NCBI GenBank assembly: GCA_902593475.1
Contig: CACJIM010000004.1
Span: 340-64,339, forward strand
Source: an uncultured Candidatus Actinomarina sp.
Lineage (GTDB): Bacteria; Actinomycetota; Acidimicrobiia; Actinomarinales; Actinomarinaceae
Reading direction: 5' to 3'
Length of the DNA: 64,000 bases
The translations under genes and the position numbers were made by a program. How positions within the stretch are numbered: position 1 is the first letter of the stretch; each line of letters starts with the position of its first letter. This document shows, piece after piece, positions 4,013 to 61,204 of this stretch. The notes beneath the pieces are model-generated. The model saw nothing but the letters and a program-made list of their open reading frames with translations, did not search any database and was not told the DNA's origin.

Positions 4013-5233
4013 ATGAATAATTTATCAACCTCTGAACTCTCGTCTCTTGCAATAATTTTTGGGATTTTAATCATTACATATTTTGTATTGAGAAGCATAC
4101 TCTTTCCTGCTTTAAAAAAAATAGCAAAAAGAACATCAACGTTTATTGATGATTTATTTCTGGAAAAAAAATTTCTGAATCGACTTTCATATGTTCTAGT
4201 AATTATAGTTTTTACCTTTTTGACTTCATCTCCTAGATTTAATCTTGAAATATTTTCAAATCCAATAATTTCTAGACTTCTTGATTCATTACTGACTCTG
4301 TTTGTCGGTCTTACCATACTTGAAATGCTCACTGTGTTTAATAAGGTTTCTGAAAATATAGATGTATTAAAAAATAAACCTATCAAAGGATATATTCAAA
4401 TAATAAAAATAATTATCGCATCATTCATCGCGATAATTATTTTTGCAATAATAACTGGTCAATCAGTGGCTTACTACATAAGTGGTCTTGGAGCTTTGAC
4501 TGCAGTATTGTTGTTAGTCTTTCAAGATACAATTCTTTCATTTGTAGCATCAGTCCAAATTGGTCAAAATGACATAATTAAAATTGGTGACTGGATAGAG
4601 GTTCCCGAGTTTGGTGCAGATGGAGATGTTGTAGATATAGCCCTTCACACTGTAAAAGTACAAAATTGGGACAAAACAATTACAACAATACCTACATCAA
4701 AAATTGTTAATACTTCTGTGAAAAACTGGAGGGCAATGTCTGAGTATGGAGGGAGGAGAATAAAAAGATCAATATTAATAGATATTTCTAGTATAAAGTT
4801 TTTAACTGCAGAAGAAACAGTCGAACTTCAAAAGCTTTCACCAATTAAGAGCTATATTTCAGAAAAAAACGAGGAGTTAGAAGAGTTTAATAAATTAAAC
4901 AGTGAGTCTTCTAACCAATTAGAAACTAGGAGATTAACAAATATCGGAACTTATAGAGCGTATGTTGAGAACTATTTGAAACAAAGTCAAAATTTAAACA
5001 CTGACACCATGACTTTTTTAGTTCGTCAATTACCCTCTTCTCCTGAAGGAGTGCCTATAGAAATATATACATTTACGAATACAACAGAGTGGGTTGCTTA
5101 TGAAAAAATACAATCAGACATTTTTGATCACTTATTTGCAATTCTTCCAAAATTTGGATTACGAGTTTTCCAAAGTGGTGTAATAGAGGCTGTGGCTATG
5201 AAAAACTTACCATTTAACCAACTGGACGAATAA
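4013..5233 (+). CDS. Mechanosensitive ion channel, MscS family
   Basis: 406 aa. N-terminal TM helices are followed by an MscS-like core: IGDWIEVPEFGADGDVVDIALHTVKVQNWDKTITTIPTSKI. Confidence 0.85.
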   Translation: MNNLSTSELSSLAIIFGILIITYFVLRSILFPALKKIAKRTSTFIDDLFLEKKFLNRLSYVLVIIVFTFLTSSPRFNLEIFSNPIISRLLDSLLTLFVGLTILEMLTVFNKVSENIDVLKNKPIKGYIQIIKIIIASFIAIIIFAIITGQSVAYYISGLGALTAVLLLVFQDTILSFVASVQIGQNDIIKIGDWIEVPEFGADGDVVDIALHTVKVQNWDKTITTIPTSKIVNTSVKNWRAMSEYGGRRIKRSILIDISSIKFLTAEETVELQKLSPIKSYISEKNEELEEFNKLNSESSNQLETRRLTNIGTYRAYVENYLKQSQNLNTDTMTFLVRQLPSSPEGVPIEIYTFTNTTEWVAYEKIQSDIFDHLFAILPKFGLRVFQSGVIEAVAMKNLPFNQLDE

Positions 5234-6701
5234 ATCTTCTGACAAGCGTAAGAGCTCCAAATATTATAAAAATATAATTTAAATAATTTCCATATTTGCT
5301 GTATGGAGTATCTGTTTGTCTTACTTCAAGTTTTTCATTTAATGTTGTTGTTTCAAATAATTCAGTTTTAGAAATAACTTTTCCATTGTGATCTATGAAC
5401 GCTGATTTACCTGTAATTGCAGCATGTACAATTGGTCTATCATTTGAAATAGCATTTGCCCTGGACATTAATATAAATTGGTCCGACATCCCACTTTCTC
5501 CATAGCTTGCTTGGTTAGTAAGGATTACAACTAACTCTGCACCGTCCATGACACTGTTTCTAATGTATCTTTGGAAAGACCCTTCAAATGAGATAACAGT
5601 TGATATTTTTGTATCATTAACCATAAATATTTTTTGACCATCTCCCCTAATCATGTCACGAGGAACTAGTGCTAGTGATGGAATCCAATCTAAATATTTT
5701 CTAAATGGAATATACTCTCCAAAAGGAACGGGGTGCTGTTTTAAATATTGATCTACAACCTCTCCCTCTCTGTTAATAAAGATTCCATAATTTTCGAAAT
5801 ATTCTTTTTGTACAGGTCTGTCTCCCCCAATTAAAAAATATGAATCTAATCTTAGAGCTTGGGTAGAAACGTCATTTTGAACTCTACTATGTACTCCCGG
5901 ATCATTGTTAAATCCAGTTGAGCTCTCAGGCCAAACAACTAAATCAAAATTGCCTTCGAGGGATTGGGTTTGAGCTAAATGGCTATCATAAATTTTTTGC
6001 CTTTCATTGCTGCATCTGTTTTTTGCACCAGGACAAGGACTGTTTCCTTGAACGATTGTAATGTTGAGTTCTGATGTTTCTAACTGAGTGTACTGATAGT
6101 CATTAAAAACATAATTTGAAATGAATATTGTGAAAATTATTAATAAAAATATGCTGTAATCCTTTAAGTAATTTTTTGGTTTGCTTTTTGAAAAAACACC
6201 TAGTGCAATTACTAAAGGAAGAGATTGTAGTAAAAGTGAAGATCCCGTTGGTCCAAAGTTTCTGAATGTCCAAGGTACTACAAAAAATAATGGGCTATCT
6301 ATAGGGCCTGTCAGTAAAACTGTTGATGGAAAACCCCAAGGAAATCCTCCAAAAGGAAAATATGCTCTGATCAAATCGAAGACTGCTAAAGCTGCCAACA
6401 ATACATAGAAATTATTTCCAGATTTTGTATTTAGATAAGAAAATAATTTTGAGAATACTCCATACATCAACCCCATTAAAAATGTCAACGGTATCCAGGC
6501 TTCAAGTCCTATTGATTGAATTCCTAATAGAATCACGCCGTAAGCGACGCACCCAAAGATAAATCCTGACAGAAAAGATTTTTTACTTGAAAGCAATGAA
6601 TAATACAAAAGATAAAGTGCAGGAAATATTAAATACCAAAAATCATAAGGAGGAAAACTTAAGGAGTAGAGCAAGCCGGCAATAATGGCATTCATAAACA
6701 T
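5214..6701 (-). CDS. lnt: Apolipoprotein N-acyltransferase homologue
   Basis: 495 aa with a multi-TM N-terminus and a CN-hydrolase domain. It has VVWPE (Glu) and YLKQHPVPFGEYIP (Lys) motifs. The expected nucleophile motif ICYE reads ISFE (see findings). Confidence 0.85.
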   Translation of the reverse strand: MFMNAIIAGLLYSLSFPPYDFWYLIFPALYLLYYSLLSSKKSFLSGFIFGCVAYGVILLGIQSIGLEAWIPLTFLMGLMYGVFSKLFSYLNTKSGNNFYVLLAALAVFDLIRAYFPFGGFPWGFPSTVLLTGPIDSPLFFVVPWTFRNFGPTGSSLLLQSLPLVIALGVFSKSKPKNYLKDYSIFLLIIFTIFISNYVFNDYQYTQLETSELNITIVQGNSPCPGAKNRCSNERQKIYDSHLAQTQSLEGNFDLVVWPESSTGFNNDPGVHSRVQNDVSTQALRLDSYFLIGGDRPVQKEYFENYGIFINREGEVVDQYLKQHPVPFGEYIPFRKYLDWIPSLALVPRDMIRGDGQKIFMVNDTKISTVISFEGSFQRYIRNSVMDGAELVVILTNQASYGESGMSDQFILMSRANAISNDRPIVHAAITGKSAFIDHNGKVISKTELFETTTLNEKLEVRQTDTPYSKYGNYLNYIFIIFGALTLVRRFIRPVG

Positions 6702-6738
6702 ATGCTTATATGTTAATAATCCCCCTAGTTGAAATAAA

Positions 6739-7473
6739 CTAATTTATGTTTCTCAAAATAACATAAAGCCCAGAAATAATGGAAAAATAAGTTACTGACT
6801 GGGCAATAAAACTGTCTGAGACTTTTGAGAAAAGCGAGCTAGAAACTCTAATGCCTACCAAAACAACTGGAAGAAATAACATAAATAAAAGTAGGTGGTC
6901 AACATAAAGATTGCCACTAAGAATTAAAAGAGACAATGTAATCAAAATTCCTATGCTAAATACACTATTGAGAGATGGCCTAAATTCCTGAGATTTAGTA
7001 TTCCTATAAAGTAAAGCTACAGGAGGACCACCAATGGCTGCGATCATCCCAAAAATACCTGAAAAAGTACCTGCAAAAAAGGAATTCAAAGTATTTCTGT
7101 TAATTTCCCACCCAAAAAAAGAGCCTGCACCTGCTATAAAAACTATAAGCCCTACAGAGATTGATAAATATTTTTCGGATAAGTTTAATAATAACAAGAG
7201 TCCAATTGGTCCTCCTATTAATCGGCCTAAAATAAGTGGCTTGACTTTAGATAAATCAACTTCGTCTTTTTCTCGGTAAAAAACTCTTAAAGCTAGTGGC
7301 AAACCAAGTAAAGCGAGCAATTGCGGCACCAGACTAGGCTCAATTTGAACAATTATTGGTGAAGCAATAACAGCAAAACCAAAACCCAAAACGCCTTGAA
7401 CAGCAGAGCCAATAAAAAGTAGTAATGCAATAAAAATTACTTCAAATAGCGTTAAGTCAAACGGTAAATTCAA
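6739..7473 (-). CDS. TauE/SafE (DUF81) family membrane anion exporter
   Basis: 244 aa, polytopic, with Gly-rich helices. Its TTG start overlaps the stop of the upstream SelW-like frame (TTGA). Confidence 0.75.
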   Translation of the reverse strand: MNLPFDLTLFEVIFIALLLFIGSAVQGVLGFGFAVIASPIIVQIEPSLVPQLLALLGLPLALRVFYREKDEVDLSKVKPLILGRLIGGPIGLLLLLNLSEKYLSISVGLIVFIAGAGSFFGWEINRNTLNSFFAGTFSGIFGMIAAIGGPPVALLYRNTKSQEFRPSLNSVFSIGILITLSLLILSGNLYVDHLLLFMLFLPVVLVGIRVSSSLFSKVSDSFIAQSVTYFSIISGLYVILRNIN

Positions 7474-7706
7474 CCAAGATCTTCTTCAATTAATTTAAGA
7501 ATTTCTCCATCTTCTGAGTGTCTTCCAAGTTCTTTTTTTGAAAATAATAATTTTTCATCTAAATGAAATTCAAATACTCCACCACCGCTTGGAATTAATT
7601 GAATGTTTGTAACTTTGTTACCGTAAACTTCTAAGATATCTTCAATCGTGCTAACTGCACGAGGTGTGTAGTTTCAAACTACACAAAATTCAAGTTTGAT
7701 TTCCAT
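7470..7706 (-). CDS. SelW/Rdx-family thioredoxin-like protein with in-frame TGA (candidate selenocysteine)
   Basis: Not in the ORF track. The frame runs ATG 7706 to TGA 7470 and reads MEIKLEFCVV-TGA-NYTPRAVSTIEDILEVYGNKVTNIQLIPSGGGVFEFHLDEKLLFSKKELGRHSEDGEILKLIEEDLG. The TGA (7674-7676) sits at the U position of a CxxU redox motif. Two hairpins lie at and just after the TGA. Confidence 0.65.
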
Positions 7707-7743
7707 AACTAAATACTATCATATAAAAAGTTAAAGGAGTTGA

Positions 7744-9642
7744 GTGTACAACTATTCAGACATATCTTTAGGAAAATTAGAAGAAGACTTAAATAATACA
7801 ATCGAAGAATGTAAAGATTTGGTTAGTAATATTAAATCTTCTGAAAATATCGATTTATCGAATTTTAATGAGCTGGAGAGTGCAATTTATGATCTTTCTG
7901 GACGCATTGCGTTTATGGGAGATGTACATCCAGATGAAAAAATAAGAAATTTTGGAAATGAAGCAGATTCAAAAATACAAAATCTTGCACTTGAAATATT
8001 TAAAGATCAAGATCTATACAAAAAGTTTAAAGAAATAGAAACCAAAAATTTAGATGAAGAATCGAAAACATTTTATAGAGATTTAGAAATTGACTTCAAA
8101 GATGCAGGACATGGTCTATCAGATGAAAAAAAGGGTAGACTCACAGAAATCGAAAAAAAGCTTATAGATCTGAGCATTTCTTTTTCAGAAAATATTGCAA
8201 AAGACAAAACTGAAGTTATGTTTTTGGAAGATGAACTAAAAGGTCTGAGTCAAAATGAACTTAAAAACTTGAAGAAAAATAAAGATAGTTTTGTTATAAC
8301 AATGGCATATCCGGACATCAATGCTGTTATGGAAAACTGCAGTGTGAGAAAGACTAGAGAAATTGTTTGGAAAGCTTTTAACAATCGAGCTGTAAAAGAA
8401 AATAGTCCAATTCTTGAAGAAGCTGTTCAGCTTAGAAATGAAAAGGCTTTGTTGTTTGGATTTAAAACTTGGGCTGAATATAGATTGCAGAATAGGATGG
8501 CAAAGTCACCAAAAAATGTAGCTTCAATGTATGAGAGCTTGATTCCAAAATTACAAAAAGCAGCTGAAGTAGAAAAAATTGAACTTGCAATAGATAACAT
8601 CGAAATTTCTGATATAACACCTTGGGATATACGCTATTTTATTTCAAAAGAAAGAAGCAAAGTAAGCAGCATTGAGAATAGTGAATTAAAAAAATTCTTT
8701 TACATACATGATGTGAAAACTGAAATGTTTAAAGTTTGTGAAGAAGTGTTTGATTTGCATATAAAACCTGAATCGAATGAAACTGCATGGCATGAAGATG
8801 TTGAGCTTTGGTCTTTATGGGAAAAAAATGGTCAACAATTAGCCTACTTTTATTTAGACCTTTATCCAAGAGAAGGAAAATTTACACACGCTGCAGTATT
8901 CGATATATCTTCTGGTGGATCTAGCAGACAAGAGTTGCCAATATGCTCAATGGTTGCAAATTTCCCAAACCCGAACACAGGAGATGGTTTAATGACTTTC
9001 GATGAAGTTGAAACTCTTTTTCATGAATTTGGCCATGTTCTACACAACGGAGTTGGAAAATCAAAATATACGAGATTTGTTGGTGCAAACTGTGAATGGG
9101 ACTTCGTCGAAGCACCAAGTCAAATTATGGAGCATTGGGTATGGAAAGTAGAATGTATGAAAAGAATTTCAATGCATATTGAATCTGGTGAATCATTGTC
9201 TGAAGAAATATGTGAAAAATTAAATAAATCAAAAAATATTGGAGTTAGTTTACTTACACTCAGGCAGGTTTCATTTGGTCTTGCAGACCAACATTTACAT
9301 GGTGAAAACTTTAAAGACAGCCTTTTAGAAATAGAACATGCAGCACAAAAAGTTACATCAATAACATATCCGAAAGATATCAATCATCTAGCAGCTTTTG
9401 GACATTTACTTGGTGGGTATGATGCAGCTTATTATGGTTATTTGTGGGCTGAAATAATCGGTGATGACTTATTTAGTAGATTTGAAAATGAAGGAGTATT
9501 GTCTAATTCTGTTGGTGTTGACTATAAAAATAAAATTCTAAAGCCTGGAGGAACTGTACCTGCTGAAAACATGGTTCAGGACTTTTTAGGTAGAAAATGG
9601 AATGATGAGGCCTTTTTATCCCAAAAAAACTTGTCAAAATAA
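7744..9642 (+). CDS. M3-family zinc metallopeptidase (oligopeptidase A / dipeptidyl carboxypeptidase-like)
   Basis: 632 aa with the HEFGH zinc motif in the context LFHEFGHVLH. GTG start follows AAAGGAG. Confidence 0.9.
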   Translation: MYNYSDISLGKLEEDLNNTIEECKDLVSNIKSSENIDLSNFNELESAIYDLSGRIAFMGDVHPDEKIRNFGNEADSKIQNLALEIFKDQDLYKKFKEIETKNLDEESKTFYRDLEIDFKDAGHGLSDEKKGRLTEIEKKLIDLSISFSENIAKDKTEVMFLEDELKGLSQNELKNLKKNKDSFVITMAYPDINAVMENCSVRKTREIVWKAFNNRAVKENSPILEEAVQLRNEKALLFGFKTWAEYRLQNRMAKSPKNVASMYESLIPKLQKAAEVEKIELAIDNIEISDITPWDIRYFISKERSKVSSIENSELKKFFYIHDVKTEMFKVCEEVFDLHIKPESNETAWHEDVELWSLWEKNGQQLAYFYLDLYPREGKFTHAAVFDISSGGSSRQELPICSMVANFPNPNTGDGLMTFDEVETLFHEFGHVLHNGVGKSKYTRFVGANCEWDFVEAPSQIMEHWVWKVECMKRISMHIESGESLSEEICEKLNKSKNIGVSLLTLRQVSFGLADQHLHGENFKDSLLEIEHAAQKVTSITYPKDINHLAAFGHLLGGYDAAYYGYLWAEIIGDDLFSRFENEGVLSNSVGVDYKNKILKPGGTVPAENMVQDFLGRKWNDEAFLSQKNLSK

Positions 9643-9707: not shown

Positions 9708-9902
9708 ATGACAGACGGATTAAAAGCTAGTCAAATTAAGGGCGGAATAAGGCCATCAAAAAGTTTTGACCAGGGCAGAGTATGTAAAGATGATTCTTGC
9801 AGTACTCAACTAAGTATATATAACAAAAGAGATCATTGCTTCAATCACGCTCCAGTGAAATATCCTAGAGTTAGAGGCAGAATTCTCCAAGAAACTGCTT
9901 AA
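9708..9902 (+). CDS. Small putative zinc-ribbon protein
   Basis: 64 aa with C-x4-C-x12-C-x2-H spacing (CKDDSC...CFNH). AAGGA precedes the ATG, and terminator hairpins follow the gene. Confidence 0.55.
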   Translation: MTDGLKASQIKGGIRPSKSFDQGRVCKDDSCSTQLSIYNKRDHCFNHAPVKYPRVRGRILQETA

Positions 9903-9922
9903 GTTTTAAACTCCCCCCTAAT

Positions 9923-9978
9923 GAAATCTCCCCCATGAGATTTCCGATAAGCCCCTATGAGAATAGGGGCTTATTTTA
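9923..9978 (+). terminator. Tandem hairpins forming a rho-independent terminator
   Basis: First hairpin is GAAATCTC-CCCCAT-GAGATTTC (9923-9944). Second is AAGCCCCTA-TGAGAA-TAGGGGCTT (9949-9972), followed by ATTTTAT. Confidence 0.6.
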
Positions 9979-10005
9979 TAAATACATCATTATTATTATT
10001 TAGTT

Positions 10006-10215
10006 ATGGAAACAAAATTTACTGTACCTGAAATTAGTTGTGGACACTGTAAAGAAACAATTGAGTCAACTATAAATAGTCTCGAAAATGTTGAAGCTGT
10101 CAATGTTGATATTGATCAAAAATCAGTAGAAGTTAAGTCTTCCTCAGATCTAGATTTGTCTCTGGTTTCTAACATGCTCGATGAACAAGGCTATACAGTT
10201 GTCGAATCAAGTTAA
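10006..10215 (+). CDS. copZ: Copper chaperone, heavy-metal-associated domain
   Basis: 69 aa with an HMA fold and the CGHC metal-binding motif (EISCGHCKETIE). Confidence 0.85.
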   Translation: METKFTVPEISCGHCKETIESTINSLENVEAVNVDIDQKSVEVKSSSDLDLSLVSNMLDEQGYTVVESS

Positions 10216-12277
10216 ATCTGTCAATTTAGATATTGATGGTATGACTTGTGCGGCTTGTGCTGCAAGAGTTGAGCGTGTACTAACAAAAAACGAACACGTA
10301 TTAGACGCATCAGTGAGCTTTCCCTTAAAATCTGCAATTGTAGATATCGCAGATGATGAAAGTTTTGATTTTGATGAAATTATTAAATCAGTAAATAAGA
10401 TTGGCTATAAAGCAAAAGAAGCTTCTGAAGATAACACTAAAAAAAATATCAAATTTAAAATCTTTACCCCAATAGCTTCATTATTAATGACTGTTTCTCT
10501 TAGGTATTTTTTTGAAGCAGGTCTGGATTTAATATCCTACCTTATAGGTTTTTTTGTTATTTTAGTTCTTGGAAGAAATTTCCATATATCTGCGTTTAAA
10601 AAAATTAAAAATCTTGATTTCAATATGGACACTTTAATCTCACTTGGAAGTTTGAGCTCTTTGTTAATTTCTTTATTGCCGGCTGAGCTAGTTTCTTCAA
10701 TGAGTTCTGCATCGAGTGAAAATAAAATGTTTCTTGATACTGGAGCTTTTATCGTGTCTTTTTTACTTATTGGTAAGGCAGTAGAAGATAGGGTAATAGA
10801 AGAGTCTGTGAAAACTTCAGAGTCAATAAAAAGTCGAATGCCAAAAACTTTGTTAGTAAATAGAGATAAAGACAGAATTGAAATACCTACAAAAGATGTT
10901 AAAGAAAAAGATCGTTTCAATGTAATGGTCGGTGAAATTATTCCCGTTGATGGTGAGATTGTTGAAGGTGAAACTACTGTTGATGAAAGCCTTCTTACTG
11001 GAGAGTCTATACCTTTAACAAAAGAAGAAGGAGATCAGGTTGTTGGAGGAAGTATTAATTTACAAGGAAATATAGAGATTGAAGTAAAAGAATCTTACCA
11101 AAAATCAACTTATAACATTATCGAAGACTTAATCAGAAATGCTCAGGGAACTAAGCCAGATATTCAAAAATCACTCGACACAATCACACAGTATTTTGTA
11201 CCGGTTGTTTTATTTACTAGTTTTAGCACTTTTGTATTCAAGTATCTAATTCAAGATGTTGCCTTGATAGACGCCCTAAAAAATGCAATAGCTGTATTAG
11301 TTATTGCATGTCCATGTGCACTGGGGCTAGCAACCCCAATAGTTTTATTTAAAACTGCAACAGTCAGCAAACTAAAAGGCTTTCTTTTTAAGAATTTTGA
11401 TATTCTTCAAAAGTTTGGAGACATAAATACAATGGTTTTCGACAAAACGGGTACTCTTTCCTCCGGTATCTTTAAAATCAGGGAGATTCAGATGCCTAAT
11501 GAAACTATTCCAAGAAATACTGTTTTGCAGTTGATTGCAAGTCTTGAAAACTATTCTCAACACCCAATTGCAAAAAGTATTGTTTATCAAGCAGAGTTAG
11601 AGGATTTAACACTTCTTCCTGCTTCAAATATAAAAGAAAAACCCGGCGTTGGAATTGAGGGCATTGTTGAAGAGCAACTTATTAAAATTGAAAAAAACAA
11701 AGAGAAAAATGACTCTTCACTTAAAGTTTCAATAAATGATCTATATTATTTTTTATACCTAGAAGAAGAAGCATCCGTGTCTAACAATTTTTTAAAAGAG
11801 CTTAAAGAAGAGAAGAATATCGTAATTCTCTCTGGTGATAAAAAAGTTAATGTAGAAAAATTTGCTGAAGAACAAAACATAAAAGAATTTTATTCTGATA
11901 AAAGTCCTGAGGAAAAACTTGATTTTGTAAAAGATATCCAAAAAGATGAGAGGGTAATTTTTGTTGGTGATGGAGTTAATGATTCACCGTCAATTAAACA
12001 AGCTGATGTTGGAGTAACTACCTCTTCTAGTAGCCAGATTGCACAAGTTTCTGGAGATATATTAATCCACAAAGGAGGTTTAGAAACTCTGAGTGAAGTA
12101 TTTAGTCTTTCAAAAAAATCAAAGTATAGAATATATCAAAATCTTTTTCTCGCCTTTATTTACAACACACTAATGATACCTATTGCAGTTGTTGGCCTAA
12201 TTACACCGAATTTGGCAGCACTAGCAATGGCCCTTTCTAGTATTTCGGTAGTAATAAACTCTTCAAGAAAACTCTAA
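10181..12277 (+). CDS. copA: Copper-translocating P1B-type ATPase
   Basis: It has an N-terminal GMTCAAC HMA domain, CPC in a TM helix, DKTGT, SQHPIAKSI (HP motif) and GDGVNDSP. The ATG at 10181 overlaps copZ by 35 nt, so TTG 10199 is a possible alternative start. Confidence 0.92.
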   Translation: MNKAIQLSNQVKSVNLDIDGMTCAACAARVERVLTKNEHVLDASVSFPLKSAIVDIADDESFDFDEIIKSVNKIGYKAKEASEDNTKKNIKFKIFTPIASLLMTVSLRYFFEAGLDLISYLIGFFVILVLGRNFHISAFKKIKNLDFNMDTLISLGSLSSLLISLLPAELVSSMSSASSENKMFLDTGAFIVSFLLIGKAVEDRVIEESVKTSESIKSRMPKTLLVNRDKDRIEIPTKDVKEKDRFNVMVGEIIPVDGEIVEGETTVDESLLTGESIPLTKEEGDQVVGGSINLQGNIEIEVKESYQKSTYNIIEDLIRNAQGTKPDIQKSLDTITQYFVPVVLFTSFSTFVFKYLIQDVALIDALKNAIAVLVIACPCALGLATPIVLFKTATVSKLKGFLFKNFDILQKFGDINTMVFDKTGTLSSGIFKIREIQMPNETIPRNTVLQLIASLENYSQHPIAKSIVYQAELEDLTLLPASNIKEKPGVGIEGIVEEQLIKIEKNKEKNDSSLKVSINDLYYFLYLEEEASVSNNFLKELKEEKNIVILSGDKKVNVEKFAEEQNIKEFYSDKSPEEKLDFVKDIQKDERVIFVGDGVNDSPSIKQADVGVTTSSSSQIAQVSGDILIHKGGLETLSEVFSLSKKSKYRIYQNLFLAFIYNTLMIPIAVVGLITPNLAALAMALSSISVVINSSRKL

Positions 12278-15695: not shown

Positions 15696-16332
15696 AAGTT
15701 CTAGTTGCTCCTTCAACTCCACTAAATAAACTTGCTATTTTTTCTGATTCTTGTTCAAACGTTCCAGTTATATATTTAGGCTCTTGTATTGCAAAACACC
15801 TATTTTTAAAATCAATTTCAATTGGTACGTAAGGAATATTTAATCCTTTTGCTAAATAGTAAAAGCCACTTCTAAATTGCTTAACAGGTTCAACTCCCCC
15901 TTCTGGAGCTATAACTAAAATGTAGTTATTAATAGTTTTAAATTCTTCAACAGCTCCTCTAATTAGCCCTTTGGAGTTAACACGATAAACAGGTATACCA
16001 CCGAGCTTTAGCATCAAGTACTTTTGTAACCACCAGAATGGCCAGGGAATTCCCTGCCTATCTAAATTTTTAGATATAGTAAATAAACTTGGAAGCCTAG
16101 TAAATACCCAAGCTGCTCCAAAAAAATTTACTTTTAAATCTAATGCCCATACAGCGAGTAACGCATACCAGGCATCTCTCATAGCTGTATGGGGAATGCC
16201 TATAAGTATCATTTTTTCCAAATCAGGAATTTTTCCTTTAATTTCCCATCTAAAAACTTTTAGTAACAACCTTCCTAGAGGACCTAATATTTTTCTTTGT
16301 TTTTTTGCTAGTTTTTCATTCGTAGAAATCAT
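15682..16332 (-). CDS. Lysophospholipid (PlsC-type) acyltransferase
   Basis: 216 aa with an HxxxxD motif (PHTAMRD) and APEGG. It is a paralogue of 44292-44960, sharing the QGIPWPxxWLQ block. Its start overlaps the asd stop (ATGA). Confidence 0.7.
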   Translation of the reverse strand: MISTNEKLAKKQRKILGPLGRLLLKVFRWEIKGKIPDLEKMILIGIPHTAMRDAWYALLAVWALDLKVNFFGAAWVFTRLPSLFTISKNLDRQGIPWPFWWLQKYLMLKLGGIPVYRVNSKGLIRGAVEEFKTINNYILVIAPEGGVEPVKQFRSGFYYLAKGLNIPYVPIEIDFKNRCFAIQEPKYITGTFEQESEKIASLFSGVEGATRTFKML

Positions 16333-17315
16333 AATTTTTCCACAAACTTAGCTATCTGCACTGCATTTAAAGCAGCACCTTTTAAAAGGTTGTCAGAGAC
16401 TACCCAAAAGTTTAAAATATTTTTTGATGAAAGACCTTGTCTAAGTCTTGAAACTAAGACCTCGTCTTTGCCTTCTACATCTATTGGTGTTGGTAATGAA
16501 TCATTCCAGACTTCTACACCTTCAAAATTATTTAGTAAATCGTTGCATTCCTCCAGGTCAACTTCATTTTCAAACACTGCAGAGCAAAAAGTTCCATGAC
16601 CTGTTCTTACTCCAACCCTTGCATTAGATGGTTCAACAACTAAATCTGGAATCGATAGTATTTTTCTTGATTCGTGGACAAATTTCATTTCTTCATCAGA
16701 GTATCCGTTATCAGTTAAGCTTCCTGCAAGAGGAATAACGTTCCTAGCTATTGGATTTGAATAATAAGTCTGTTGATAATTTGCATCTAACTTATCACCT
16801 AATAAAGTCTCTTTTTCTAATGATTTTATAGCTTCAGATCCTGATCCAGATACTGCCTGATAAGCAACAGGGGTCATGGAAGATAAAGTGTACTTATCAT
16901 GTAGGGGCTTTAAAGCCATTACTAATCCCATTGTTGTACAGTTTGGATTAGATATCAACTTTGATTTTTTTGTGATTATGTTTTCATTAATTCCATACAC
17001 AACAAGAGGAACTTCATCGTTCATTCGAAAAACAGATGAGTTGTCTATTACAAATGAACCATTATCTATGAAAGTAGGTGCGTAATTTTCAGACCTTTCA
17101 CCACCAGCTGAAAATAGTGAAATGTTGTATTCTCCAATATTTTCTTTATTAAGTTCTTTAACGGTTATATCTTTGTCATTAACTCTAATCTTTTTTCCTT
17201 CTGAGGATTTTGAAGCAAATAGCGAGTATTCAACATCTACATCGAAATACTGCTCACATAAATTTATAATATTTGTGCCAACAAGGCCTGTTGCACCAAC
17301 AATTGCTATCTTCAT
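16329..17315 (-). CDS. asd: Aspartate-semialdehyde dehydrogenase
   Basis: 328 aa with the N-terminal GATGLVG Rossmann motif and active-site NPNCTT. Overlaps ask by ATGA. Confidence 0.95.
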   Translation of the reverse strand: MKIAIVGATGLVGTNIINLCEQYFDVDVEYSLFASKSSEGKKIRVNDKDITVKELNKENIGEYNISLFSAGGERSENYAPTFIDNGSFVIDNSSVFRMNDEVPLVVYGINENIITKKSKLISNPNCTTMGLVMALKPLHDKYTLSSMTPVAYQAVSGSGSEAIKSLEKETLLGDKLDANYQQTYYSNPIARNVIPLAGSLTDNGYSDEEMKFVHESRKILSIPDLVVEPSNARVGVRTGHGTFCSAVFENEVDLEECNDLLNNFEGVEVWNDSLPTPIDVEGKDEVLVSRLRQGLSSKNILNFWVVSDNLLKGAALNAVQIAKFVEKL

Positions 17316-20922: not shown

Positions 20923-21263
20923 TGCAAAAATTTCCATTAAAAAAAGGTCTCTCTAGTGCCCAAGATTTGCACAATGAAATCAAAGAGTACATTGATGTTC
21001 TTATGGGACACATCAATCCACCAATAGCTGATGGGGTAGATACTTTATTCGAGGTTAGTAGTACTTACCTTGCCAGAGCAAAAGAGATAGAAATAAAACT
21101 TTTAGAAAGAGAAAGAAACACAAAAATCGAATCTGGTGATGAGTTAAAGAAATTTCGAACTGGTGAATTAAGAAGCTTTATTGAATTATGTAAAAGTGCT
21201 CAAAATCAAGGCTCAAGAAGAATAACAGTTGCATTAAGTGAACTAAATCTTAAAGAAAATTAA
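20922..21263 (+). CDS. Hypothetical protein
   Basis: 113 aa, helical and charged, with no family recognised. Its ATG overlaps the murJ stop, and its stop overlaps the convergent dnaX stop. Confidence 0.5.
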   Translation: MQKFPLKKGLSSAQDLHNEIKEYIDVLMGHINPPIADGVDTLFEVSSTYLARAKEIEIKLLERERNTKIESGDELKKFRTGELRSFIELCKSAQNQGSRRITVALSELNLKEN

Positions 21264-22801
21264 TCAATACTCTCAACATCAAAAATTTCACTGATGTTAC
21301 TTTGCACATCTTTACTTGTTTGATTATTATTTTGAAGCCCTTCATGCGGTTGAATCGCAACAGTTACTTCTACTCCCATTTTCTGGGTAACATTTGATTT
21401 AATTAACTCAATAATTTCATCCGACTTACGAAGTTCAGATATCAAATATTCGTTTTCACTATCTATATATAGAGTTAAATTATTTGAATCTATAACCTCA
21501 GGTTTTACAAGTGTTAAGTAAGAGTATTTTCTTGGTGAAAGAATCGCCTTAGCCTCCTCTAGGATTTTTGGCCAATATACATCGAAGTTCTCAATATCAT
21601 TTTTAACAATTGGTTTCTTAGTATTCTCTTTTGTTGGTTTATCTTTAGCTACTTTTTCATTACCTAGTTTTTTTTTATCTGAAGATGTTTGTTGCTTTTT
21701 AGAAATTTTTTCTGTTACACCATGCTCTTCTAGCATATCAACTCTTCTACTCACAGACTTAATATCCGTCGCTAATTGTGGTTTAATAAGTTTTACTAAA
21801 AATAGTTCTAATTTTAATTCTTGTGATGGTGAAGTTTTAATACTTTGATTAATCTCATCAAGCATATCTAAAATTCTTGATAAATCTTTTGCAGAAATAA
21901 TATCATTACAATTTTTAATTAACTCTTTTTCAGAATCACTTAATGAAGTGAAGTTTTCATCTTCAGGCAGATACTTAAAGTAAAATAAATTTCTAAAAAG
22001 ATCTGTTATTGAATTTAAGATATCAATTGCCTGTAATCCATTTTTATAATTAGCTCTTAGCACTTTGAGAACAGTTGCAGTGTCCTGAGTTCCCATAGCT
22101 TCTAATATTTGAAGTAAATCAGTTATCGTAACCTTTCCTAAAATACTATAAAGTTGTTCCATGGTGGCTTTATTGCCAAAGGTTGAAAAAGTCTGTTCAA
22201 AAAGATTAATGGCATCTCTTAGTGAACCATCACTTTGATTGGCAATGTACTCTAAAACATCTTTAGATAACTTAATCTTTTCAGCCTTACTGATCTTTTC
22301 AAGTGAAGTTGTAATGTCAGTATTTTTTATTCTTTTAAATGCTATCTGTGTTGTTCTGCTTCTAATTGTCTCAATAACTCTTTCTGGTTCAGTTGTTGCA
22401 AGTATAAAAATTACATGCTCAGGTGGCTCTTCAAGAGTTTTTAAAAATGCATTCGAAGCAGCATTGGAAAGCATATGCACTTCATCTAGGATGAATACTC
22501 TTTTCTTTCCTGGACTACTTGCAATAAAATTAACACTATCGTTAAGCTCTCGAACATCATCTACTTTATTGTGAGAAGCTGCATCTATTTCAGTAATATC
22601 AAATACTGGGTCACATCCAATTGTTGTTGCAATAATGCGTGCTAAAGAAGTTTTGCCAACCCCTCTTGGTCCTGAAAATAAGTACGCATGACTCAAATTA
22701 CTGTTTTTTATTTGTTCACTAATAAGTTGTACAGCATCAGATTGACCAACTAACTCCTCTAGAGAGCTGGGTCTATATTTTCTGTAAAGTGCTTCTTGCA
22801 T
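21260..22801 (-). CDS. dnaX: DNA polymerase III subunit tau (gamma/tau)
   Basis: 513 aa with Walker A GPRGVGKTS, DEVHMLS and the SRT sensor (IRSRTT). An A9 run lies at 21668-21676 (see findings). Confidence 0.95.
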   Translation of the reverse strand: MQEALYRKYRPSSLEELVGQSDAVQLISEQIKNSNLSHAYLFSGPRGVGKTSLARIIATTIGCDPVFDITEIDAASHNKVDDVRELNDSVNFIASSPGKKRVFILDEVHMLSNAASNAFLKTLEEPPEHVIFILATTEPERVIETIRSRTTQIAFKRIKNTDITTSLEKISKAEKIKLSKDVLEYIANQSDGSLRDAINLFEQTFSTFGNKATMEQLYSILGKVTITDLLQILEAMGTQDTATVLKVLRANYKNGLQAIDILNSITDLFRNLFYFKYLPEDENFTSLSDSEKELIKNCNDIISAKDLSRILDMLDEINQSIKTSPSQELKLELFLVKLIKPQLATDIKSVSRRVDMLEEHGVTEKISKKQQTSSDKKKLGNEKVAKDKPTKENTKKPIVKNDIENFDVYWPKILEEAKAILSPRKYSYLTLVKPEVIDSNNLTLYIDSENEYLISELRKSDEIIELIKSNVTQKMGVEVTVAIQPHEGLQNNNQTSKDVQSNISEIFDVESID

Positions 22802-25228: not shown

Positions 25229-25894
25229 TTGATGGATGTATTCGAAGCTTTATATACAACACGTGCAATGCGAAGAGTTAGTGAAGATCCAATTCCTGAT
25301 GATGTTTTAAAACAAATGGTTGATGCTGGTATTCGGGCACCTAGTGGTTCTAATCGTCAAGGTTGGAAATTTATTGTAGTAACTGATCCAGAAATAAAAA
25401 ATCAACTTGGAGATTCGTACAGAGAGGCTTGGGATTTTTATGTTAAAGAATTTTATGGAGGTACTTCAGACATGGGAGCATCTAATGTCCTTGATGATGA
25501 AAAGGCTCAGCAAGTAGTTCGAATTAGTAAATCAGCAGCATGGCTTTCTGAAAATTTTCACAAAGTGCCTGCAATGTTTGTCGTATTATCAAGAAATGAT
25601 CCAACTGGTTCTTCTATATATCCTGCAATTTGGAGCATAATGCTTGCTGGAAGAGCACATGGTGTAGGTACTTGCTTGACAACCGTTTTAGGAATGTTTA
25701 AGCCTGAAAAAGCCTTTGAAATTTTAAGTATTCCAAACGACAAAGGATGGAAGATAGATGCTGTCATAACTGCAGGTTATCCTTTAGGTAAATGGGGTGT
25801 CGCAAAAAGAAATCCTGTGGATGAAGTTACTTATTTAAACACATGGGGCAATGAAACTAATTGGAATTTAAAAGAGCCCCTCTGGAATTACTAA
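25229..25894 (+). CDS. Nitroreductase family protein
   Basis: 221 aa with N-terminal TTRAMRR and PSGSNRQGWKF motifs. The ATG at 25232 is an equally plausible start. Confidence 0.8.
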   Translation: MMDVFEALYTTRAMRRVSEDPIPDDVLKQMVDAGIRAPSGSNRQGWKFIVVTDPEIKNQLGDSYREAWDFYVKEFYGGTSDMGASNVLDDEKAQQVVRISKSAAWLSENFHKVPAMFVVLSRNDPTGSSIYPAIWSIMLAGRAHGVGTCLTTVLGMFKPEKAFEILSIPNDKGWKIDAVITAGYPLGKWGVAKRNPVDEVTYLNTWGNETNWNLKEPLWNY

Positions 25895-25910
25895 TTTAAT
25901 AAAAATAGAG

Positions 25911-25984
25911 CACGCCCGGAGGGAGTCGAACCCCCAACCTTCTGATCCGTAGTCAGATGCTCTATCCAGTTAAGCTACGGGCGC
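25911..25984 (-). tRNA. tRNA-Arg (anticodon ACG)
   Basis: Reverse complement is GCGCCCGTAGCTTAACTGGATAGAGCATCTGACTACGGATCAGAAGGTTGGGGGTTCGACTCCCTCCGGGCGTG. It forms a cloverleaf with anticodon loop CTACGGA and T-loop GGTTCGA. Confidence 0.93.
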
Positions 25985-25988
25985 ATTG

Positions 25989-26075
25989 CGGAGAGGGAGG
26001 GATTCGAACCCTCGAGGGAATTTCTTCCCCACTCGCTTAGCAGGCGAGCACTTTAGGCCACTCAGTCACCTCTCC
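25989..26075 (-). tRNA. tRNA-Ser (anticodon GCT)
   Basis: Reverse complement begins GGAGAGGTGACTGAGTGG. The anticodon stem-loop is CTCGC-CTGCTAA-GCGAG, with a long variable arm and T-loop GGTTCGAATCC. Confidence 0.92.
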
Positions 26076-26082
26076 AAGTCAG

Positions 26083-26168
26083 CGGAGGGAGTGGGATTCG
26101 AACCCACGGTATGGAATACATACAATAGTTTTCAAGACTATCGCCTTCGTCCGCTCGGCCATCCCTCC
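26083..26168 (-). tRNA. tRNA-Ser (anticodon TGA)
   Basis: Reverse complement begins GGAGGGATGGCCGAGCGG. The anticodon stem-loop is ATAGT-CTTGAAA-ACTAT, with a long variable arm and T-loop GGTTCGAATCC. Confidence 0.92.
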
Positions 26169-26188
26169 AGATGGTTTCTTTCTTTTTG

Positions 26189-26277
26189 CGGAGGGAGAGG
26201 GATTCGAACCCTCGAAGGGGATAAACCCTTACACGCTTTCCAAGCGTGCGCACTAGGCCAGACTATGCGATCCCTCC
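26189..26277 (-). tRNA. tRNA-Ser (anticodon GGA)
   Basis: Reverse complement begins GGAGGGATCGCATAGTCTGG. The anticodon stem-loop is CACGC-TTGGAAA-GCGTG, with a long variable arm and T-loop GGTTCGAATCC. Confidence 0.92.
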
Positions 26278-26803: not shown

Positions 26804-27358
26804 ATGTTTGAGTTTTTCATTTTTGCATTTGTAACTGCAATCACACCAGGGCCAAACAATTCCATGCTTATGGCCTCTGGAATAAAGTTCGGTAGAAAAG
26901 CGTCAATACCCCATTTTCTTGGTATCTGGTTAGGATTTACTTTCTTATTTTTTGTTGGTGGATTTTTACTTTCATATGTACCTGCTCAAATTTTTGATTA
27001 CCTTCAGTATGTTGGTTACGCAGTTATTACGTATATTGCCTATAGAATCGCCACAACTTCATTGGATACAAATAAAGAAAGTTCTTCAGTAGATAAGCCT
27101 TTTACTTTTGTACAAGCATGTCTTTTTCAGTGGATAAACCCAAAAGGGGTTGTCATGGCTGTATCAGGACTTACTGCGTTTAATATTACAAACAACCAAG
27201 GCGCTTTGATATATTTCTTAGTTCTACCTTTTTGTGTGGGAATATGGTTAATACTTGGAGAACAACTTCAAAATAGTTTAGAAAAAAATAAAACAGTTGC
27301 TCGTGCAACATACGTGGTGCTCGGCATAAGCATGATTGCTAGTTTGTTATTAGCCTAG
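26804..27358 (+). CDS. LysE/RhtB family amino-acid exporter
   Basis: 184 aa with about 5-6 TM segments. The N-terminal ITPGPNN motif is present. Confidence 0.8.
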   Translation: MFEFFIFAFVTAITPGPNNSMLMASGIKFGRKASIPHFLGIWLGFTFLFFVGGFLLSYVPAQIFDYLQYVGYAVITYIAYRIATTSLDTNKESSSVDKPFTFVQACLFQWINPKGVVMAVSGLTAFNITNNQGALIYFLVLPFCVGIWLILGEQLQNSLEKNKTVARATYVVLGISMIASLLLA

Positions 27359-28600
27359 GTTTTTAACTCCAATAATCTCAGCAACTTTATCAGAGAACTC
27401 AACTTTTCCATCTTCAGTTTGATTATTTTCAATTAAAGCAATTAAAATTCTTCCAACTGCAATGGCTGTTCCATTTAGAGTGTGTAATATACTAGTTTCT
27501 CCTTCTGACTTTGCTCTTATGTTTAACCTTCTTGCTTGAAAGCTTGTTGTGTTGGAGCAAGAAGTGACCTCTCTATACGTATTTTGACTTGGTATCCATG
27601 CTTCAATATCGTATTTTTTAGCAGCAGAAGCACCTAGATCTCCTGCGCAAACATCTACTACTCTATATGGAATTTCCAAAGACTGTAGCAGTTCTTCTTC
27701 TACTGATAGAATAAATTCATGTTCCTCTTCAGACTTTTCAGGATTACAGAAGGAGAACATCTCAACTTTATCAAACTGATGGACTCTAAATATTCCTGTT
27801 GTGTCTTTTCCGTAAGTTCCAGCTTCTCGTCTAAAACATGTTGAAAAACCAGCATATCTTATAGGCAATTCTTCTATATTGAGAATCTCATTGGTGTGCA
27901 GTGCAGCAAGGGGAACTTCAGAAGTACCCACTAGATATAAATCATCATTTGGAATTTCATAAACTTGCTCTGCATCATCTGGAAAGAAGCCTGTACCGTA
28001 CAAAGCATTTTCTCTTACCAAAACTGGTGGGACTGTAGGAGTAAATCCTTTTTCTGATAATTTATTTAATGCCCAAGAGACTAAATTAAACTCAATTTTT
28101 ACCAAATCTCCAAATAGATATGCAAACCTAGAGCCTGATACTTCAGAAGCTTTTTCGACATCTATTAAATTTAATTTAGAAGCAATTTCTAAGTGATCTT
28201 TTGGATTAGATATATCTTTTATATTTCCAACTTTTTTAATTTCTAAATTATCTTTGTCAGATGTACCATCTGGAGAAGTTTTTGAAATTAAATTAGGAAT
28301 TTTTACCCATAGATTTAAGAACTCTTCATCTTTTTTATCAACTTGTTCAAACAACAACTTGACCTCGTTACTTAATTCTGAAGCACTGTTTAATAATCTC
28401 TCTTTTTCACTTTCATCGGCATTTGCAATTTGCTTACCTAATTCCTTTTGTTGAGAACGTTTTTGTTCTGCATCGAATCGTAATGACTTTCTTTCTTCAT
28501 TTAAAGTAATTAAATGATTTACGTCTATTTCTAAATTTCTTCTGGAAATATTTGTTTCTAATATATCTAAATTATCTTTTAATATTGCGGGATCTAACAT
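27350..28600 (-). CDS. serS: Serine--tRNA ligase
   Basis: 416 aa with an N-terminal coiled-coil arm and class II motifs (FRREAG, TSEVPL, GTAIAVGR). Confidence 0.96.
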   Translation of the reverse strand: MLDPAILKDNLDILETNISRRNLEIDVNHLITLNEERKSLRFDAEQKRSQQKELGKQIANADESEKERLLNSASELSNEVKLLFEQVDKKDEEFLNLWVKIPNLISKTSPDGTSDKDNLEIKKVGNIKDISNPKDHLEIASKLNLIDVEKASEVSGSRFAYLFGDLVKIEFNLVSWALNKLSEKGFTPTVPPVLVRENALYGTGFFPDDAEQVYEIPNDDLYLVGTSEVPLAALHTNEILNIEELPIRYAGFSTCFRREAGTYGKDTTGIFRVHQFDKVEMFSFCNPEKSEEEHEFILSVEEELLQSLEIPYRVVDVCAGDLGASAAKKYDIEAWIPSQNTYREVTSCSNTTSFQARRLNIRAKSEGETSILHTLNGTAIAVGRILIALIENNQTEDGKVEFSDKVAEIIGVKNLG

Positions 28601-39169: not shown

Positions 39170-40438
39170 TTAAAGGTCGTTAATAAACGTATCTTGAAAA
39201 CTCTGTCTATTAACTAACTCAACTACACCCCTACTAGTTACTGCAACTACTCCGGATTTAGGTACTCGGTTATAGTTACTTGCCATAGCAAAGGTGTAGG
39301 CACCAGTAGAAGTAGACATTAAAATATCTCCAGACACAGTGTCACTTGGTAACATGGCATCTTTCACTAATAAATCTCCACTTTCACAGTGTCTACCAGA
39401 GACTGCATGCACCACATCTTCTCCAGCTTTTCCACCAGAGATATTAAAGAGCTTATGTTCACTTCCATACAATGCTGGCCTTGGATTATCAGACATACCA
39501 CCATCCACCAAAATATATGGTTTCTCGCCTCGGTCATCTTTTATAGCTCCAGCAGTATATAAAATGACTCCTGGATTATTGACTAAGGCTCTTCCTGGTT
39601 CAATCATGACTTTATAGGATCCACTCCAGTGTTCTTTAATGCCTTCATGAATAGCATCAGCATACACTTTTAATTCATGGTCTACTTCATCACCAGCATA
39701 AGGTGAAAAGAATCCACCACCGGCATCAAAGACTATCTCTCTTTCTACACTTGCAGGATGAGCATTAAGAAAATCTGCACACTCACTCATTGCTTTTCTG
39801 TAGCGATCCGGGTCTTTAATCTGGCTTCCAATATGTACATGGACTCCAGAAAAGAGTAAATGTTTTGAGTTATAGATCTGTTGTAATGCCTCTTCAGCAA
39901 ACCCAATAGAGATTCCAAACTGTTGGTCATATCCAGAAGTCAACACCATTGGATGGGTCTCTGCTCCAACATCTAAATTTATACGCATAATCACTGGTTG
40001 TTTTCTGTCTAATTTTGCTGCAACCTCTTCTAACATTGGAATCTCAAAACGATTATCGACAGAGATGTGGCCTCCGTTATGTTGCATAAAGAACTCAATC
40101 TCATCTTTATGCTTAAAGGTTCCATTAAATAAAGAGTTTTCTAGGGTTCCAGTAACAGCTTGCACTGTTGCCATCTCCCCACCAGAGACAACATCTACTC
40201 CCCAGCCTTTCTTATCTAATTCTTTGACTAATGCTTTACAGATAAACGCTTTTGCTGCATATCTAAAGTACGTATCCTCACCAAACGCATTTGTAAAATG
40301 ATCAATATTATCTCTGAGATGTTCCCAGTCATAAACATACAGGGGAGTGCCGTACTCATTGGCAACATCAAGTAGTGACGTCTCTCCAATAAAAGCGACT
40401 CCATCCCTAAATTCGAGGTTGGATGGTAAGTAATTCAT
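39170..40438 (-). CDS. lysA: Diaminopimelate decarboxylase
   Basis: 422 aa, PLP-dependent, Orn/DAP/Arg decarboxylase group IV fold. Motifs YAAKA, HVHIGSQ, GGGF and CESGD are present. Confidence 0.9.
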   Translation of the reverse strand: MNYLPSNLEFRDGVAFIGETSLLDVANEYGTPLYVYDWEHLRDNIDHFTNAFGEDTYFRYAAKAFICKALVKELDKKGWGVDVVSGGEMATVQAVTGTLENSLFNGTFKHKDEIEFFMQHNGGHISVDNRFEIPMLEEVAAKLDRKQPVIMRINLDVGAETHPMVLTSGYDQQFGISIGFAEEALQQIYNSKHLLFSGVHVHIGSQIKDPDRYRKAMSECADFLNAHPASVEREIVFDAGGGFFSPYAGDEVDHELKVYADAIHEGIKEHWSGSYKVMIEPGRALVNNPGVILYTAGAIKDDRGEKPYILVDGGMSDNPRPALYGSEHKLFNISGGKAGEDVVHAVSGRHCESGDLLVKDAMLPSDTVSGDILMSTSTGAYTFAMASNYNRVPKSGVVAVTSRGVVELVNRQSFQDTFINDL

Positions 40439-41202
40439 TTCTTTAAACGACGCTTAATCCAGGCAATATCTTTCTTCTGCGCTTCAAGTCCTCCTGGTGT
40501 TTCTACAACAATATCAGATTTACAATTATTAATAACATATTCAAGTTCTGCTTTTGGAATATTTCCTTTTCCTAGGTTTTCATGACGATCTCTTGAGCTT
40601 TCAAATCCATCTTTAGAGTCATTAAAATGAACAAGGTCTATATTTTTTACCAATTTCTTAAAACCTTTTACTGCCTTTTCTGTTGGAATACCACCAGCCC
40701 ATGTGTGGCAAGTGTCTAAACATAATCCAACATTTAAGTGTCCAATAACTTCCCATAGTCTTTCAATGGAGTCCATATACCTTGCAACAGAGTTTTTTCC
40801 ACCAGCTGTATTTTCTACTAAAACTCTCATACCTGTATCTTCAACATGTTCTATAGCTTTTCTCCAGTTGTCATAACCTACTCCTATATCTCCGCCTTCA
40901 CCAACAGACCCTCCGTGTACAATGACTCCTTTAGCTCCGAAACTAGCTGCTACTTTACAAGTGTCTTTAAGCAGTTTCCTGCTTGGATGACGTACTTTAT
41001 TATTGGGTGTTGCAACGTTTATTAAATAAGGTGCATGAACATATATAGGACCACCATAATCTTGTAATTCTTCCAGATCTTCTCGTGGTTTTGGGCTCTT
41101 CCACATCTGCGGACTTGAGACAAAAATCTGAAAAGTATCGCCTTTTCTCATTTTTATCTCTTCAACCGCATTTTTTGAAGGTATGTGTGCGCCAATATTC
41201 AT
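40435..41202 (-). CDS. nfo: Endonuclease IV (AP endonuclease family 2)
   Basis: 255 aa with HAPYLIN, VHGG, ENTAGG, CLDTCH and HFNDS...RDRHENLG motifs. Confidence 0.9.
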   Translation of the reverse strand: MNIGAHIPSKNAVEEIKMRKGDTFQIFVSSPQMWKSPKPREDLEELQDYGGPIYVHAPYLINVATPNNKVRHPSRKLLKDTCKVAASFGAKGVIVHGGSVGEGGDIGVGYDNWRKAIEHVEDTGMRVLVENTAGGKNSVARYMDSIERLWEVIGHLNVGLCLDTCHTWAGGIPTEKAVKGFKKLVKNIDLVHFNDSKDGFESSRDRHENLGKGNIPKAELEYVINNCKSDIVVETPGGLEAQKKDIAWIKRRLKK

Positions 41203-61158: not shown

Positions 61159-61204
61159 ATTTTCCTTTCTTACCTTGAGAAAATGTAAGAAATTTTAGAA
61201 ACTT

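Follow-up and report, generated by a model that had tools for sequence, protein, structure and literature searches.

We analysed a 64,000-nucleotide (nt) stretch of DNA from an uncultured Candidatus Actinomarina sp. (hereafter the window), whose reverse strand carries a short reading frame interrupted by a single TGA. The frame encodes a protein of the Rdx (SelW/SelT/SelH) family, and comparison with its relatives suggests that it is very probably a genuine selenocysteine (Sec)-encoding gene, in which a hairpin just downstream of the TGA would act as the Sec insertion sequence (SECIS; bSECIS for the bacterial form). In window coordinates, the elements of the gene are:

7470..7706, reverse strand: predicted Rdx/SelW-like selenoprotein gene of 78 codons, ATG 7706..7704, stop TGA 7472..7470
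7674..7676, reverse strand: candidate Sec codon UGA, codon 11, at the second redox position of the motif C8-V-V-U11
7646..7662, reverse strand: putative bSECIS core hairpin (hairpin 2), 6-bp stem UCGUGC/GCACGA with the 5-nt loop AGUUA
7665..7685, reverse strand: hairpin 1, 9-bp stem UGUGUAGUU/AACUACACA with UGA as its 3-nt loop; accessory or incidental

The frame 7706..7470 begins ATG GAA ATC AAA CTT GAA TTT TGT GTA GTT TGA AAC TAC ACA CCT CGT GCA GTT AGC ACG and ends GGT TGA. Its translation is MEIKLEFCVV*NYTPRAVSTIEDILEVYGNKVTNIQLIPSGGGVFEFHLDEKLLFSKKELGRHSEDGEILKLIEEDLG, with the C-terminus EEDLG and one internal TGA (7676..7674), which alone accounts for the absence of the frame from the list of open reading frames (ORFs). 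Scored with U replaced by C, the protein matched Pfam PF10262 (Rdx) with 59.2 bits (cut-off 22.6) over residues 3-74, an interval that spans the TGA and covers profile positions 2-73 of 74, and TIGR02174 (CXXU_selWTH) with 44.8 bits (cut-off 34.2). A sequence search of the PDB matched six bacterial 'selenoprotein W-related' structures, including 3DEX and 2FA8, and the TGA aligns with the second Cys of the YCTQC motif of SAV_2001 (3DEX) and Atu0228 (2FA8). An earlier note on this DNA, made from the letters alone, had claimed that a 237-nt reverse-strand frame is interrupted by a single TGA at 7674-7676, that it encodes an Rdx/SelW protein and that the TGA falls exactly on the second position of CxxC/CxxU; translation, profile scores and alignment, respectively, agree with each of these claims.

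An AlphaFold2 model, built from database homologues that bear W at the Sec site, had a predicted local distance difference test score (pLDDT) of 88 and a predicted template modelling (TM) score of 0.79, with strands at residues 2-8, 34-40, 45-49 and 52-56 and helices at 14-31 and 68-82. The Sec site lies between strand 2-8 and helix 14-31, which is a thioredoxin-like arrangement. The top 21 Foldseek matches to the model are bacterial SelW-related structures (including 2FA8, 2OBK and 3DEX; TM ~0.80, root-mean-square deviation (rmsd) 1.4-1.7 Å), and after the bacterial Rdx structures Foldseek lists MIEN1, mouse SelW and thioredoxins. Since the profile scores and the fold agree, membership of the Rdx family is established; from sequence and model, the product of the locus is predicted to be a 78-residue cytoplasmic protein of thioredoxin fold with the motif C8-V-V-U11, acting as an oxidoreductase. 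The Cys-form Rdx structures (Atu0228, 2FA8; SAV_2001, 3DEX; P. fluorescens, 2OBK; B. parapertussis, 2OJL; P. aeruginosa, 2OKA; V. cholerae, 2P0G) share this fold (TM 0.80, rmsd as above) and the aligned redox motif, YCTQC against FCVVU, but have CxxC instead of CxxU, are 17-26% identical in sequence and are about 20 residues longer. Mammalian selenoprotein W (2NPB) and MIEN1 (2LJK) also share the Rdx fold, with CxxU/CxxC at the same structural position (TM 0.65), but are distant in sequence, have a eukaryotic SECIS in the 3' untranslated region, and interact with partners, such as 14-3-3, that are without a bacterial counterpart.

Orthologues were collected from one genome per GTDB species with the patterns M[ED]IKLEFC and NYTPRAV[SG]T, which flank codon 11 and leave the Sec codon itself out, so that Cys forms would have been recovered. 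The scan yielded 62 loci, nearly all titled Candidatus Actinomarina, Actinomarinales or OCS155. All 63 sequences obtained from the 62 species-level genomes (37 unique local contexts) had TGA at codon 11, and none had TGT or TGC, the alternatives against which the earlier note had proposed checking it. The set includes Ca. Actinomarina single-amplified genomes (SAGs) and the MED-G97 metagenome-assembled genome (MAG), to which the window is 96-97% identical in nucleotide sequence over 17.7 kb, and extends to relatives with ~68% flanking nucleotide identity; two distant relatives with high GC content (L073 and L074) also have TGA, in the context FCRT-U-NYTPRAVS. Actinomarina-type copies of the gene were also present in bins labelled 'Methanobacteriota archaeon ARS96', 'Marinoscillum sp. 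MED1001' and 'Flavobacteriaceae bacterium TMED206' (L071, NYXO01000052.1; L072, NZKG01000031.1; and P0083), and are probably binning contaminants.

These data bear on the possibility that a former CxxC Rdx gene has been disabled by mutation to TGA, or that the TGA arose as a sequencing artefact. Standard gene callers do skip or shorten the gene, as in the 42-amino-acid (aa) P0109 and P0113 and the 58-aa P0083. However, the same TGA recurs in dozens of independent assemblies (SAGs, MAGs and metagenomes), which excludes an assembly error, and no orthologue in the 62 species-level genomes shows any further disruption of the frame. Codons 1-10 have a ratio of nonsynonymous to synonymous divergence (pN/pS) of 0.128 and codons 12-78 one of 0.283, and this purifying selection on both sides of the TGA indicates that both parts are translated in this frame. 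With the conserved, covarying hairpin 3' of the TGA that is described below, the invariant TGA and the two-sided selection effectively refute a pseudogene or an assembly error, to which we attach a negligible probability.

We also considered that UGA might be read organism-wide as Trp (code 4) or Gly (code 25), so that residue 11 would not be Sec. More than 100 database proteins of the Rdx family are indeed recorded with W at residue 11; protein clusters P0001-P0108, of 84-91 aa, have this W and a second W at the real stop. These records, however, are code-4 calls on short contigs, in which the true stop is read as W into non-conserved sequence; the DNA at both 'W' sites is TGA, as seen in L007-L012, and the loci do not give the W proteins under code 11. 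As the DNA of the clusters retains TGA, they are independent evidence of its wide conservation rather than of reassignment. On the same short contigs a 190-aa antisense ORF is called where the downstream TauE gene lies. Within the window TGA terminates 6 of 50 long ORFs, including asd (16329-16331) and ask (17312-17314), the two cases in which the earlier note had taken it for a genuine stop, and the terminal codon of the Rdx gene is itself TGA, i.e., a normal stop in this genome. Moreover, the TauE gene and the remaining genes of the window tile correctly under code 11, and neither W nor G is a known Rdx variant at the second position of CxxC, where the PDB homologues have Cys. Reassignment is therefore rejected, TGA being a working stop and the W records artefacts of gene calling; there is hardly any chance that it applies. 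Five other TGA-interrupted frames, found by a crude scan of the uncovered stretches of the window, were of low complexity and not protein-like, and were dropped without a family search.

The stem of hairpin 2 begins 11 nt past the UGA and its loop lies 17 nt past it. Folding with ViennaRNA upheld the hairpin, the loop distance of 17 nt and the G at the second loop position, all of which had been proposed earlier, while the proposed stem of 5 bp starting at 12 nt had to be corrected to 6 bp at 11 nt. The minimum free energy (MFE) of the hairpin in the window is -7.8 kcal/mol alone and -8.7 kcal/mol with its flanks, and the window contains a single instance of the SECIS-core pattern CGTGCNGTNNGYACG, where chance would give 0.03. 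Covariation was analysed in 40 distinct 75-nt segments, in which every cell of the hairpin 2 stem is paired (240 of 240; 100%). The third base of Pro15 and the first base of codon 21 form the outer pair, which is complementary without exception (22 sequences with U-A, 17 with C-G and one with G-C), and the fifth pair alternates between G-C (12) and G-U (28). Given the G-C in L039 against U-A in its sister L037, and the split between U-A and C-G, at least two independent double substitutions must have occurred. The covariation score was reached by none of 500 shuffles, slid controls were 16-54% paired, and RNAalifold, run without a given structure, predicted hairpin 2 as the sole helix. The downstream hairpin thus covaries, which was the outcome of a check that the earlier note had suggested. 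The MFE ranges from -5.7 to -8.7 kcal/mol in all 40 sequences, a stability that appears to be buffered; where the inner pair is the weaker G-U (AGU), the outer pair is in most lineages the stronger C-G.

Synonymous sites in and around the hairpin tell the same story. Arg16 is CGT in all 37 unique contexts and Thr20 is ACG in 36 of them, the lone exception being ATG, which keeps a G-U pair, while each of these codons makes up only 7% of its family in the genes of the window. These rare codons are frozen while adjacent synonymous sites vary freely, and codons 15-21 show a synonymous divergence (pS) of 0.23, compared with 0.61 for codons 22-78. The second and third loop positions are always G-U (AGUUA or AGUUG, and CGUGA in the high-GC relatives). 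The bSECIS consensus asks for a loop of 3-9 nt with G within the first two positions, followed by U, a stem of 4-16 bp, a distance of 16-37 nt from UGA to loop and an MFE of -7.5 kcal/mol or lower (PMC13188914). Hairpin 2 of the window lies within all of these bounds, with a 5-nt loop, 6 bp, 17 nt and -7.8 kcal/mol.

Hairpin 1, which holds the UGA in its triloop, might in principle also take part in recoding, by shielding the UGA from RF2 or pausing the ribosome, as part of a two-hairpin SECIS variant. In the window it is perfect and, at -8.7 kcal/mol (ViennaRNA), equal in stability to hairpin 2, so the fold that the earlier note had described is real. Its four pairs that depend on synonymous choice are paired in 78-93% of sequences, against 40-71% predicted by the codon usage of the window; AAC is used in 33 of 37 contexts, though AAT makes up 68% of Asn codons in the window; and one double change from G-C to A-U (V9I with TAC>TAT) occurs in eight sequences. 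Against this, 90.6% of its cells are paired, 4 of the 9 pairs vary by breaking only, and RNAalifold predicts no hairpin 1. Its MFE falls to between 0 and -2.2 kcal/mol in L047, L050/51, L062/67 (a clade of ~10 genomes) and L073/74, where the hairpin is abolished or nearly so and the TGA and hairpin 2 are both kept. Much of the complementarity stems from the conserved peptide C-V-V-U-N-Y-T being written in AT-rich codons, and the pairing counts are too high because the sequences share ancestry. By the geometry of the ribosome footprint, codons 8-10 occupy the P and E sites while UGA is in the A site; these codons are the 5' arm of hairpin 1, so it cannot form at the decoding step. Because lineages that have lost hairpin 1 keep the TGA, a required role is rejected and conservation, unlike the fold, did not hold; any contribution to recoding appears clearly unlikely.

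Hairpin 2, the candidate SECIS, resembles the SECIS of E. coli fdhF in being a stem-loop within the coding region, with G-U in the apical loop and the upper hairpin starting 11 nt past the UGA. In contrast to fdhF, it lacks a bulged U and a lower helix in which the UGA itself is paired, its loop is the 5-nt AGUUR and its stem sequence is unrelated. A spacing rule of 11 nt for the minimal E. coli SECIS was reportedly set out by Liu et al. in 1998 (NAR).

The gene is followed by a transporter gene and preceded by a putative promoter, and the corresponding features are:

6739..7473, reverse strand: TauE/SafE (TSUP) membrane transporter gene; Pfam TauE 78.1 bits, profile positions 2-236 of 237
5214..6701, reverse strand: lnt (apolipoprotein N-acyltransferase), 37 nt after TauE; TIGR00546 177 bits
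7713..7721, reverse strand: extended -10-like box TGATAGTAT, with TAGTAT at -12..-7 from the ATG and TG ahead of it; putative promoter

The TTG start of the TauE gene overlaps the Rdx stop as TTGA. This overlap, which the earlier note had pointed out and which is present in the window, recurs with an intact TauE ORF of ~244 aa in 61 of 61 Actinomarinales sequences, at 58-100% identity. TauE is absent downstream of Rdx in the two high-GC relatives, L073 and L074; the P0111 contigs, being shorter than 1 kb, are uninformative on the arrangement outside Actinomarinales. The order TauE-lnt is also found in L001-L012, and no terminator-like site was detected in 6600-7900; lnt is possibly the third gene of an Rdx-TauE operon, to judge from this gene order.

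Upstream, the Rdx ATG is separated by 37 nt of intergenic DNA from the start of a divergent M3 peptidase gene. There is no Shine-Dalgarno (SD) sequence and a TAGTAT box stands just upstream, both as noted earlier, and in most Actinomarinales clades TGnTAnnnT is conserved 6-7 nt before the ATG, also with no SD. A two-hexamer sigma-70 scan missed the TAGTAT box, which has no -35 element, so the promoter call draws on the extended -10 being conserved. Of 47 long ORFs in the window, only 10 carry an SD-like motif, and several of the 47 show TAnnnT 6-7 nt ahead of the start codon (for example 21260-22801, 45814-46791 and 40435-41202 on the reverse strand and 25229-25894 on the forward strand); the lack of a leader therefore seems to be the usual state in this genome and no peculiarity of Rdx. 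The Rdx mRNA itself is likely to be leaderless or near-leaderless.

These features suggest how the gene would be expressed. Transcription would start at or very near the ATG. With UGA-11 in the A site, the 6-bp/5-nt hairpin, 11 nt downstream, would be positioned at the mRNA entrance of the ribosome, where SelB·GTP·Sec-tRNA(Sec) would bind it through the apical loop that contains G-U. SelB would then deliver Sec in competition with RF2, and the second UGA, at codon 79 and without a hairpin, would bring about termination. The TTGA overlap, finally, might couple translation of the TauE/TSUP gene to that of the selenoprotein.

Such decoding calls for the Sec machinery. Each of the 84 complete Actinomarina genomes is reported to have selC, selA, selD and a selB homologue, and ~five selenoproteins are predicted per genome (bioRxiv 10.64898/2026.04.03.716425, April 2026). 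Several observations nevertheless weigh against this reading. The attribution of the machinery comes from one preprint, at the level of the genus rather than of this genome, and the selB homologue described there is divergent and lies just below the profile threshold. ARAGORN and Rfam found no tRNA-Sec in the 64-kb window, giving four ordinary tRNAs, and ARAGORN reported no tRNA whatever in 60 related 20-kb loci. No SelA, SelB or SelD was found in the window by an NCBIfam scan of 20 size-matched ORFs, whose matches are to housekeeping proteins (murJ, dnaX, serS, pknB, lysA, gyrA, add, pfp and others). The protein also misses the narrower NCBIfam equivalog NF041051 (SelTWH_Campy), scoring 81.4 against a cut-off of 88. 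As for the hairpin, in about half of the orthologues it is weaker in isolation (-5.7 to -5.9 kcal/mol) than the -7.5 cut-off, and there is no N1-N2 pair, which according to the consensus 'most' elements have, between positions 1 and 5 of its loop (A/A or A/G). No Rfam SECIS model reached its gathering threshold, and a permissive scan of 7400-7800 gave only noise, with E values of at least 1.7; Rfam models gave no SECIS in the preprint either. Set against the invariant TGA, the two-sided purifying selection and the covariation, these points leave a Sec-encoding Rdx gene with hairpin 2 as its SECIS very probable.

According to the preprint, selA lies at 91-92% of the chromosome from dnaA, outside the window. 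The ordinary tRNAs of the window form a cluster of tRNA-Arg(ACG) and three tRNA-Ser (GCT, TGA and GGA) at 25910-26277 on the reverse strand, near serS (27350-28600, reverse strand); none is tRNA-Sec.

The same preprint describes, from deep-Sep predictions, a 78-aa 'uncharacterized' family as the top-ranked and most widespread predicted selenoprotein (59 + 35 of 113 genomes). Like the Rdx gene, it is from the same genus, has 78 aa and a single U, and is missed or shortened by gene callers; by length and distribution it is very probably this gene. What differs is that we assign the gene to the Rdx/SelW-like family by hidden Markov models and fold, and give it a SECIS with covariation. The third 'selenoprotein' grouping of the preprint matches K07090 in 49 genomes, K07090 being named in its supplement as a TSUP transporter, and it mapped predictions to genes by overlap on the same strand. 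Since TauE is free of in-frame TGA codons in all 61 loci and shares 4 nt with Rdx on the same strand, this grouping is possibly an artefact, in which the 78-codon Rdx ORF may have been assigned to its neighbour TauE.

Proteins of SelW-like type with CxxU and a bacterial SECIS hairpin are known from the Sargasso Sea (PMC1088965), and in the Global Ocean Sampling (GOS) data SelW-like proteins were the most abundant marine selenoprotein family, with 427 Sec against 56 Cys forms (PMC2398784). The Actinomarina gene shares with these prokaryotic proteins a length of ~80 aa, the thioredoxin fold with CxxU between strand 1 and helix 1, a UGA directly followed by a bacterial SECIS with G in the apical loop, an origin in marine surface water, and the predominance of the Sec form over the Cys form. 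It is thus little new in principle, as marine SelW-like selenoproteins of the CxxU type with a SECIS in the coding region have been known since 2005: as predicted from sequence, the gene works like any bacterial selenoprotein gene and belongs to the commonest selenoprotein family of ocean metagenomes. New here are the family assignment of the Actinomarina gene, a SECIS supported by covariation and the order-wide coupling to a TSUP transporter gene. Whereas the Sargasso and GOS surveys named no source organisms, the host here is Ca. Actinomarina, and no Cys form was found in the order; and unlike in those surveys, the TTGA overlap with the TSUP/TauE gene is always present in the Actinomarinales sequences. 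In the literature library searched, no paper brings together selenoprotein W, TauE and bacteria.

The assignment gives a family name, a fold and a defined SECIS to the most widespread 'uncharacterized' selenoprotein of Actinomarina, which is among the smallest and most abundant free-living marine bacteria, and names a host for some of the SelW-like signal of unassigned origin that dominates the GOS and Sargasso selenoproteomes. It also flags annotation artefacts, namely >100 clusters with Trp for Sec and a read-through stop, truncated calls and the probably spurious K07090 grouping. The SECIS, predicted to be recognized by a divergent actinobacterial SelB, offers a basis for a covariance model with which the other ~four selenoprotein genes per genome might be found.

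What bacterial Rdx proteins do could be approached through the order-wide arrangement of Rdx and TSUP/TauE, a lead that can be tested. One could imagine that the two genes form an obligate, translationally coupled module, in which the oxidoreductase acts directly with the transporter; Rdx might then act on an oxyanion of sulfur or selenium that the transporter moves (sulfite, selenite or thiosulfate), by reducing it or passing it on, or might redox-gate the channel. The overlap is found in every Actinomarinales sequence, and TauE is missing beside the gene in the two high-GC relatives. We hold such a module to be rather unlikely. If true, it would be the first functional handle on bacterial Rdx proteins, and Actinomarina would be identified as a main source of the ocean's most abundant selenoprotein family.

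On the divergent side of the Rdx gene, the region 9708-12277 (forward strand) encodes a 64-aa ORF without a Pfam match, a 69-aa CopZ-like HMA protein and a CopA-like P-type ATPase, and the same block is conserved in L007-L012. In the clade of the window the M3 oligopeptidase gene (7744-9642) stands between this block and Rdx; in the L007 clade the M3 gene is absent and the 64-aa ORF directly faces the Rdx gene.

Farther away, an AdoCbl (cobalamin) riboswitch at 61196-61329 on the reverse strand (56.6 bits, over the Rfam gathering score) lies upstream of the ORF 60235-61158 (reverse strand), which heads a same-strand run that includes a PPi-dependent phosphofructokinase. A gyrA homologue (61938-63995, reverse strand; 872 bits) extends past the right edge of the window. 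In Actinobacteria gyrA is usually found beside dnaA; if it adjoins dnaA here too, the window may lie near the replication origin.

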